Shown: positions 59,087-60,183 of the stretch, piece after piece
How the letters are laid out: each line of letters opens with the position of its first letter
Position numbering within the stretch: position 1 is the first letter of the stretch
Source: a virus
Length of the DNA: 64,000 nucleotides
Strand: one strand, 5' to 3'
IMG/VR virus record: IMGVR_UViG_3300026097_000013
Span: 32,001-96,000 of that record
Program-made: the position numbers and the translations under genes
The notes under the pieces: model-generated
The model's input: only the letters and a program-made list of their open reading frames with translations
Databases searched by the model: none
What the model was told of the DNA's origin: nothing

Positions 59087-59959
59087 ATGGTGGAATTTAA
59101 CCCCGACAACTATCAAGAGCAAAACCCTCTCAAGCAGTTTTTTAGACAAGCGAAGGTTTATGTAACACTACCTAGTCAAGGTATGTTTTATCCCAAAGGT
59201 ACATTAGACATACCTGAAACAGGCGAATTTCCTGTGTATGCAATGACTGCCAAGGACGAATTGTCATTCAAAACACCTGATGCTCTTCTTAACGGACAAG
59301 CAACAGTAAACGTTATCAAAAGTTGTGTTCCAAATATTAAAAATCCTTGGTTGATGCCTAGTATTGATTTAGACGCAATACTGATTGCAATTCGTATTGC
59401 AACATACGGCGAAAATATGGAAATTTCAACTAAAACTCCCGGCAGCGGCGAAGAAAAAGATTTTACAGTAGATCTTAGACAATTACTAAACAAACTTGTT
59501 AGTGCTAAGTTTGATAATATTATTAAACTAAAAGATATGAAGGTTGAAATACGCCCGTTAACCTATAAAGAATTTACTGACTCGAGTTTAAAAACTTTTG
59601 AAGAGCAAAGAATTTTTCAACTTGTCAATGATGAAAGTATTCCCGATGCTGACAAACTTGCTAAATTTAATCAAAGTTTTACAAAACTAACAGATCTAAC
59701 AGTAAGTGTGTTAACGCAAAGTATTACAAAAATTACCGTTGGTGACACAGAAGTAACTAATCCTAATCATATTAAAGAATTTGTCGATAATACCGATAAG
59801 GAATTTTATAAAAGTTTAACTGAGCATCTTGATGAACAAAGGAATAAGTTTCAAATAGAACCTATTAAAGTAACTGCAACTCAAGATGAAGTTGCAGCAG
59901 GTGCGCCTGAAACTTATGAAGTTCCGATAACATTTGATCAATCAAATTTTTTCGCATAA
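59087..59959 (+). CDS. gp26: Baseplate hub / tail assembly chaperone (T4 gp26-like)
   Basis: YVTLPSQG, VYAMTAKDEL, VIKSCVP, IDLDAILIAIRIATYGE; ends FDQSNFFA. Confidence 0.8.
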   Translation: MVEFNPDNYQEQNPLKQFFRQAKVYVTLPSQGMFYPKGTLDIPETGEFPVYAMTAKDELSFKTPDALLNGQATVNVIKSCVPNIKNPWLMPSIDLDAILIAIRIATYGENMEISTKTPGSGEEKDFTVDLRQLLNKLVSAKFDNIIKLKDMKVEIRPLTYKEFTDSSLKTFEEQRIFQLVNDESIPDADKLAKFNQSFTKLTDLTVSVLTQSITKITVGDTEVTNPNHIKEFVDNTDKEFYKSLTEHLDEQRNKFQIEPIKVTATQDEVAAGAPETYEVPITFDQSNFFA

Positions 59960-59990
59960 GGATCTTGTCTTGGAGCCTAGGCGAGATCCT
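59947..59990 (+). other. Candidate -1 programmed ribosomal frameshift signal
   Basis: Slippery heptamer T TTT TTC (59947-59953) in the gp26-like frame, 5-nt spacer, 12-bp hairpin 59959-59970 / 59979-59990; the -1 frame is open into the 59965-60183 ORF. Confidence 0.75.
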
Positions 59991-60183
59991 AGAAGAAGTT
60001 AAAAAAATGGAAGGGTTTCAAAAAGAAATCAAGGCCGAGCTTCTTAAAATTTGTTGGTACATGCGCGGCGGCGTTACCTATTCCGAAGCAATCGAAATGT
60101 CTTTCGAAGAACGTAGTTTGATAGGAGATATTGTTAAAGACAACTTAGAAACAACCAAGAAAACTGGAATGGCATTCTTTTAA
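59965..60183 (+). CDS. gp51: gp51-like hub assembly protein; probably the frameshifted C-terminal extension of the gp26-like ORF
   Basis: WYMRGGVTYSEAIEMSFEERSLI resembles the gp51/gpT-type pattern; TTG start with AAGGA only 2 nt upstream, too close for a normal SD. Confidence 0.6.
   Translation: MSWSLGEILEEVKKMEGFQKEIKAELLKICWYMRGGVTYSEAIEMSFEERSLIGDIVKDNLETTKKTGMAFF

Follow-up and report, generated by a model that had tools for sequence, protein, structure and literature searches.

The window analyzed here, a 64,000-nucleotide stretch of the IMG/VR record IMGVR_UViG_3300026097_000013, derives from an uncultured marine giant phage, the parent viral record of which is 120 kb long and estimated to be 33% complete. 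On its plus strand lies a gene for a relative of T4 gp26, a baseplate hub assembly protein, and the 3′ end of this gene carries a candidate cassette for programmed −1 ribosomal frameshifting, composed of a slippery heptamer, a short spacer, a stem-loop, and an open −1 frame that continues past the 0-frame stop (Table 1). Through programmed −1 frameshifting, the gene starting at 59087 very probably makes two hub assembly proteins of the T4 gp26/gp51 family, one of 290 amino acids and the other of 365. The source phage falls in a clade of marine giant phages in which the extension has 76 residues and the 12-bp stem is strong.

Table 1. Features of the gp26-like locus and its surroundings in the window.
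Feature	Position	Strand	Basis
Tape-measure-like virion protein, 1504 amino acids, divergent neighbor	54494..59008	-	phrog_14121
gp26-like baseplate-hub assembly gene; 0-frame short product of 290 amino acids ending ..NFFA	59087..59959	+	PF12322, phrog_150, AlphaFold2 model, Shine-Dalgarno sequence
Slippery heptamer T_TTT_TTC in X_XXY_YYZ phase	59947..59953	+	In-frame reading; conserved among relatives
Predicted −1 frame extension, 76 codons plus stop	59953..60183	+	Open frame, homolog conservation, codon-position entropy, AlphaFold2 model
5-nucleotide spacer GCATA between heptamer and stem	59954..59958	+	Fold prediction
Putative stimulatory stem-loop, 12 bp (59959-59970 with 59979-59990), two G-U pairs, 8-nucleotide loop	59959..59990	+	Fold, covariation
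Internal ATG of the −1 frame, rival start, not conserved	60007..60009	+	No GG-containing Shine-Dalgarno match upstream
Terminator-like hairpin with T-run, 22 nucleotides past the extension stop	60205..60230	+	Consensus match only

The gp26-like open reading frame (ORF) is preceded by a Shine-Dalgarno (SD) sequence, GGAG, 7 nucleotides ahead of its ATG and ends with AAT TTT TTC GCA TAA. The T_TTT_TTC heptamer is overlapped by a second one, A_AAT_TTT at 59944-59950, at which a slip would yield the identical product. The −1 frame, which reads FFRIRILSWSLGEIL..., has no stop between 59938 and the one at 60181-60183, and the long product is predicted as join(59087..59953,59953..60183), 365 amino acids. 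The stem is the minimum-energy fold of its region, at −18.1 kcal/mol; relative to 200 dinucleotide shuffles, 2 of which fold as well, its z is −3.1. The cassette had been noticed in an earlier, sequence-only reading of this DNA, made without database searches, and recomputation reproduced every sequence statement of that reading concerning the ORF end, the heptamer, the 5-nucleotide spacer, the 12-bp hairpin, and the open −1 frame. Its remark that the small downstream ORF lacks a properly spaced SD sequence also proved correct, as the sole ATG of the −1 ORF, at 60007, has no GG-containing SD match upstream.

The 290-residue protein matches the Pfam family PF12322 (T4_baseplate) over residues 52-258, scoring 47.5 bits where the curated cut-off is 24.5, and it matches phrog_150 ("baseplate hub") at 2.6e-15, which bears out the gp26-like label given to it in the sequence-only reading. 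All 50 aligned relatives likewise match PF12322. Relatives of the locus are visible at the protein level only, because blastn with the locus as query returned none from 50,697 phage records; by tblastn they include Phosso, Atu_ph07, PA5oct, and the RaK2/121Q/CBB group, at 28-34% identity. The two phenylalanines near the C terminus of the short product, F288 and F289, are invariant in two alignments that include T4 gp26, whose own end is ..EFFELL. The window protein has no Cys at two CxxC columns that resemble a zinc ribbon, where four cysteines occur in most giant-phage relatives and in T4 gp26 and gp51. Cyanophage members also lack these cysteines (pattern CPDDGETE), and Zn_ribbon models are matched by 13 of the 50 relatives; the cysteine pairs are frequent, not universal, and so do not define the family. 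AlphaFold2 (AF2) models have a predicted local distance difference test score of 89 for the body and 92 for the extension, which is modeled as a helical hairpin whose helices span residues 11-38 and 53-73. Profile searches for solved structures returned nothing with the body, and with the extension they gave coiled-coil noise alone. The short and the long product are both predicted to finish with an aromatic pair, as ..NFFA (59948-59956) and ..MAFF (60172-60180), respectively, and the long forms of relatives finish with ..G(L/M)PFF; the extension may re-present the C-terminal aromatic motif of the body about 75 residues farther out, while RaK2-like long forms end otherwise.

Two protein-profile scans gathered 160 IMG/VR loci, and the comparative set comprises 172 giant-phage loci with 30-70% protein identity; alignment A1 proved too diverse for a locus scan. 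T_TTT_TTC is found in phase at 171 of the 172 giant-phage loci and at all 80 cyanophage-type IMG/VR loci. The sole exception, an IMG/VR contig (L148:2310-2558), has five T and A_AAT_TTT as its only slippery heptamer, and either true variation or a sequencing error in the homopolymer could account for it. T is always the last base of the codon preceding the heptamer, and the FF is invariably encoded by TTT TTC, a choice that is fixed in 251 loci despite the synonymous alternatives. Eight cultured giant phages have the same heptamer at the conserved FF, and their small ORF is always in the −1 frame, with an annotated overlap of 4 or 1 nucleotides or a gap of 17-100 nucleotides. Among cultured phages, the heptamer extends to Kyanoviridae, Straboviridae outside Tevenvirinae, Menderavirus, and the RaK2-, PA5oct-, and Atu_ph07-like giant phages. 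The cassette is carried by PA5oct, Aeromonas 65.2, RSP15, Yut3, and Vibrio 1.081.O, and it takes the form T_TTT_TTT in RSP15 as well as in Xoo-sp13, XacN1, and RsoM2USA. The window contains 72 stop-to-stop ORFs of 100 codons or more, and the gp26-like ORF is the sole genuine gene among them that has a heptamer in its last 60 nucleotides followed by at least 60 open −1 codons. Because the cassette is unique among these ORFs and recurs so regularly at the related loci, it exceeds what chance would be expected to produce. The heptamer of the window belongs to the U_UU.U_UU.Y class, whose efficiency in Escherichia coli is among the highest (PMC4066793).

The −1 frame itself bears the marks of a coding sequence. 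Counted from the slip, the 125 nonredundant −1 peptides have 72-83 residues and are conserved from the first codon past the slip onward, FFR.R(I/L)L.., while the 0-frame tails consist of 1-11 variable codons. In a gapless alignment of 102 distinct sequences, column entropies at the three codon positions of the −1 frame are 1.25, 0.89, and 1.53, which fits a coding signature that begins directly after the heptamer. These features bear on whether the locus might simply be two separate genes, the small ORF being translated alone from ATG 60007 or TTG 59965, perhaps by termination coupling, with the T-run kept only through the need for FF. GenBank does give the small ORF as a separate coding sequence (CDS), with ATGA or TAATG overlaps in some phages, and at the protein level even T4 gp26 keeps the FF. 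Moreover, Vibrio phage D510 (L273:1255-1455) retains a −1 ORF of the same family and has ATGs, while its junction, CTT TTC, contains no X_XXY_YYZ heptamer; that lineage may have switched to separate initiation. Nevertheless, the peptide conservation and the codon-position signature start at the slip, upstream of every candidate start, and if only the amino acids mattered, the fixation of TTT TTC and the preceding T would be hard to understand, given that T4 uses TTC TTT for the same residues. An ATG occurs within the first 25 −1 codons in 58 of 130 homologs and is absent there from the other 72, an ATG together with an SD-like word occurs in 9, and the −1 ORF of PA5oct contains no start codon whatsoever. 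Because early ATGs and SD-like words are so few and PA5oct is startless, independent initiation is not the conserved feature of this locus. The same domain is, in addition, covalently joined to the body in T4 gp51, and two separately translated genes are thus a very improbable explanation. The conservation of the heptamer and the lack of conserved independent initiation are both as the sequence-only reading would have it, and comparison among relatives argues very strongly for programmed −1 frameshifting.

A further component of the cassette, the stem-loop, is also conserved. In most sequences, a hairpin begins 0-6 nucleotides past the heptamer, the mean z is −1.9, and z is below −1.5 in 59% of them. 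When the window-type stem is placed on the 102 distinct aligned sequences, 71% of the cells are paired, whereas sliding the 3′ partner leaves no more than 48% paired. Pair 14-43 occurs as GC in 57, AU in 27, and GU in 7, and pair 15-42 as GC in 68, GU in 12, and AU in 9; the covariation score was reached by none of 500 shuffles. Contig L001, which is 97% identical, has a G:C to A:U double change within the stem. Both stem arms also code for conserved residues (R/K-I-L and E-I-L), and yet, in the stem swaps, an Arg/Lys change goes together with Ile/Leu changes that are synonymous. In clades farther away, the same 5′ start is kept and the 3′ arms are different ones. The covariation that the sequence-only reading proposed to look for was thus found. 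Frameshift stimulators typically begin 5-8 nucleotides downstream of the motif (PMC4066793), and the spacer in the window is 5 nucleotides.

The stem also helps to judge two other explanations of the locus. The conserved core is a homopolymeric T run, and RNA polymerase might add an extra U on the T6 run by transcriptional slippage, which would give a minority of mRNAs in frame and an identical protein, since a +1 U insertion leads to the same −1 reading frame. The longer runs of some lineages, T7 in Xoo-sp13, XacN1, and RSP15 and T9 in RsoM2USA, would suit such a mechanism. However, efficient polymerase slippage is known from runs of about 9 or more, and T6 is short. The motif stands exactly in X_XXY_YYZ phase, and a covariation-backed stem 5 nucleotides past the run is the classic ribosomal stimulator (PMC4066793), so transcriptional slippage seems improbable. 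The possibility that the window cassette is a functionless relic, retained by chance or decaying, deserves hardly any weight. The loss of the relatives' zinc-ribbon cysteines would agree with it, and a record that is a 33%-complete fragment leaves room for a second copy, but the heptamer, spacer, stem, and extension are all intact and conserved in a relative that is 97% identical and in many that are 45-70% identical, the stem shows a compensatory change, and the AF2 model of the extension is a confident one.

If the locus works by programmed −1 frameshifting, most ribosomes would terminate at 59959 and release the short form. Some would pause at the hairpin with tRNA-Phe in both the P and A sites on UUU UUC, and in these paused ribosomes the two tRNAs would slip in tandem one base back on U_UUU_UUC, after which translation would proceed in the −1 frame to 60183. 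The resulting long form would carry a predicted helical C-terminal domain of 76 residues, and the ratio of the short to the long form would be set by the efficiency of the slip. The short form would then correspond to T4 gp26, which has the body only, and the long form to T4 gp51, which has the body plus a C-terminal domain. By analogy with lambda G/GT, the shared body might hold the hub or tape-measure complex while the extension recruits a second partner.

The correspondence with T4 deserves a closer look. T4 gp26 and gp51 are baseplate hub assembly chaperones, and gp51 has been described as essential (Leiman et al. 2010, PMC3004832). The 249-residue gp51 matches PF12322 over residues 1-201 (4e-52) and phrog_150 up to profile position 280 of 282, and its residues 147-246 match phrog_634 ("baseplate hub assembly catalyst"), while the 208-residue gp26 covers phrog_150 only up to position 235 of 282. 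From this pattern of coverage, the two T4 proteins are paralogs, one with the body only and the other with body plus tail. Like the short form of the window, T4 gp26 ends at the conserved FF, and the C-terminal domain of gp51 starts F-K-L-L..P-D-E-I, which resembles FFR..LL..PEEI of the giant phages; in both cases, the genes lie in a baseplate-hub or tape-measure neighborhood. Unlike the window, where a single gene would serve for both forms, T4 uses two divergently transcribed genes without a slippery site: gene 26 ends ..GAG TTC TTT GAG TTA CTA TAA, followed by gene 25, and TTC TTT is not a slip site. The extension of the window is also longer than the C-terminal domain of gp51 (76 versus about 50 residues), and the cysteines are absent from the window protein, not from those of T4. 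In terms of gene number, T4 has two copies of PF12322, while the complete, frameshift-bearing genomes of S-BM1, S-PM2, RaK2, Atu_ph07, PA5oct, Aeromonas 65.2, RSP15, Yut3, and Vibrio 1.081.O have one each, and one copy is present in the 120-kb partial record to which the window belongs.

Cyanophages provide the link between the two arrangements. Their "gp26" and "gp51" pair (T4-GC 11 and 12; S-PM2p207/208, S-BM1) is the same cassette as that of the window and, as in the window record, comes from one PF12322 gene per genome: in S-BM1 and S-PM2, gp26 ends ..TTT TTC, with T_TTT_TTC at the FF, and the −1 ORF begins FFR. The S-BM1 −1 ORF matches phrog_634 at 4e-31, and a hidden Markov model (HMM) of the cyanophage extension matches T4 gp51 residues 201-245 with E = 1.4e-7. 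A fused cyanophage HMM stops at the slip in gp26 but crosses the junction in gp51. The fused giant-phage and fused cyanophage profiles, when aligned, stay colinear as far as the extension reaches (98%, E = 1.6e-13), while a comparison of the extensions alone is weak (E = 0.013). The cyanophage extension is shorter (62-68 amino acids) and matches phrog_634 directly, which that of the window does not. The sequence-only reading called the small ORF gp51-like, and this appears to hold, transitively and by position through the cyanophage intermediates, for the C-terminal ~50 residues of T4 gp51, not for the entire gp51; residues 1-200 of that protein are themselves a gp26 paralog. An hhalign match of the window extension to gp51 residues 40-64, at 18% probability, was judged spurious. 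GenBank presents the cyanophage pair as two independent CDSs, with "gp51" read from an internal ATG. The small CDSs L268:1420-1593 (S-PM2p208), L180:2157-2252 (S-BM1), and L270:1435-1614 (RSP15), labeled "gp51" or "baseplate hub assembly catalyst", all begin at internal ATGs of the −1 ORF, and such CDSs are probably fragments of frameshift products rather than genes of their own.

One evolutionary route seems somewhat more likely than not: the gp26 frameshift would be ancestral to the T4-like supergroup, including cyanophages, non-Teven Straboviridae, RaK2-, PA5oct-, and Atu_ph07-like phages, and uncultured giant phages, and T4 genes 26 and 51 would have arisen by a later duplication, with the slip site lost from one copy and the fusion made permanent in the other. 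T4-type phages would then possess a tail-chaperone frameshift after all, in an unrelated protein family, and the cyanophage "gp51" CDSs would be pieces of its product.

The surroundings of the gene are also informative. The protein encoded by 54494-59008 and that of the gene adjoining the gp26-like gene in CBB and other RaK2-like phages both belong to phrog_14121, and the RaK2 record notes a tape measure protein similarity for this counterpart. In RaK2-like phages and PA5oct, the order is portal, tape-measure-like gene, gp26-like gene, and small ORF, and the divergence of the tape-measure-like and gp26-like genes is as in the window; Atu_ph07 has different upstream neighbors. A BLASTP comparison of the tape-measure-like protein with T4 gp29 was not significant. 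The protein of the window is about twice as long as its RaK2- and PA5oct-type counterparts (1504 versus 720-800 amino acids), and it has a Gly/Ala-rich hydrophobic center and several near-identical repeats of ~45 residues ending ..FGEALSSVP. In the 78-nucleotide divergent spacer (59009-59086), the minus strand has the T4 late-promoter word TATAAATA at 59068-59075 and the plus strand has CATAAATA at 59036-59043. The arrangement is reminiscent of T4, where divergent late promoters lie between genes 26 and 51; TATAAATA is not enriched in the window, where 5 occurrences were found and 10 expected. Downstream, the terminator-like hairpin sits inside the 3′ end of a convergent minus-strand ORF (60184-60714).

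The sequence-only reading went further and compared the pair to lambda gpG and gpGT. A conserved −1 frameshift of tail assembly chaperone genes was reportedly described by Xu, Hendrix, and Duda in 2004. From sequence comparison, the locus of the window shares with lambda a −1 slip on an X_XXY_YYZ heptamer close to the end of the upstream ORF, and it would produce a nested pair, short and C-terminally extended, from one locus adjoining the tape-measure gene. A nonstructural assembly role, another feature of gpG/gpGT, is reported for the T4 homologs and might be shared by the window protein. On the other hand, lambda places G/GT between the tube and tape-measure genes, while the gene of the window merely adjoins a tape-measure-like gene. 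The bodies differ in size, about 290 amino acids in the window versus about 140 for gpG, and lambda G/GT is not known to need a stem-loop, while the window has a strong, conserved one. Any equivalence to lambda G/GT would lie in architecture and in a presumed role, and by the same analogy the body may bind the tape measure and the extension the tube protein.

Several results weigh against seeing in this locus a frameshift-made pair of gp26/gp51-type hub chaperones, in addition to Vibrio phage D510, described above. The gene and the tape-measure-like gene are transcribed divergently, whereas in lambda the chaperone gene is co-oriented with the tape-measure gene and just precedes it in a shared operon. 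No tail-chaperone Pfam family was matched at E ≤ 1 over 50 members, which gave zinc ribbons only, and there was no sequence match in the PDB. The structural comparison with tail assembly chaperones proposed in the sequence-only reading did not bring them closer: Foldseek searches of the PDB with the body and extension models found no match at E ≤ 0.001, and a VIA-align search of 48,161 chains yielded nothing beyond generic helical-hairpin matches, which fell on residues 142-225 with Z ≤ 8.1. What stands of the comparison with G/GT is the architecture, a short and an extended form beside a tape-measure-like gene, and what does not is the orientation; these searches found no match of family or fold to tail assembly chaperones. 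As for the extension of the window, it has no PHROG or Pfam match, its BLASTP comparison with T4 gp51 was not significant, and an HMM of the RaK2- and PA5oct-type extensions falls on gp51 residues 222-246 without significance (E = 0.24). In-frame fused homologs of the window extension were not found by a word search, a result that the tool itself rates as weak evidence. About 40% of the sequences have no fold clearly better than shuffled ones in a 55-nucleotide window. Finally, the CBB (Pectobacterium phage) record names the gp26-like homolog (L010:2489-3346) a "structural protein", which hints at presence in the virion and would fit poorly with a purely transient chaperone.

A frameshift joining gp26 and gp51 was not reported in the full-text literature searched, which omits most subscription journals, and is not mentioned in the PRFect paper. 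Every GenBank record inspected lacks an annotation of the slip and gives the small ORF as a separate CDS or leaves it out. If the gene is indeed read as proposed, the annotation as separate genes would need correction across the family in several hundred phage records, in which the long product is missing and the small "gp51" or hypothetical genes are spurious. The several hundred U_UUU_UUC signals with their stems would form a natural set for the study of frameshift stimulators in bacteria, and slip-site mutations in a cultured relative, by altering the ratio of the short to the long form, would offer a handle on hub assembly. G-T frameshifting is described as conserved in long-tailed phages "except T4" (review, PMC5009743), which makes T4 the stated exception to near-universal chaperone pairs made by frameshifting. 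A conserved slip in gp26 of the T4 relatives would remove this exception, and it would also account for why T4 itself needs two similar hub chaperones, gp26 and gp51.

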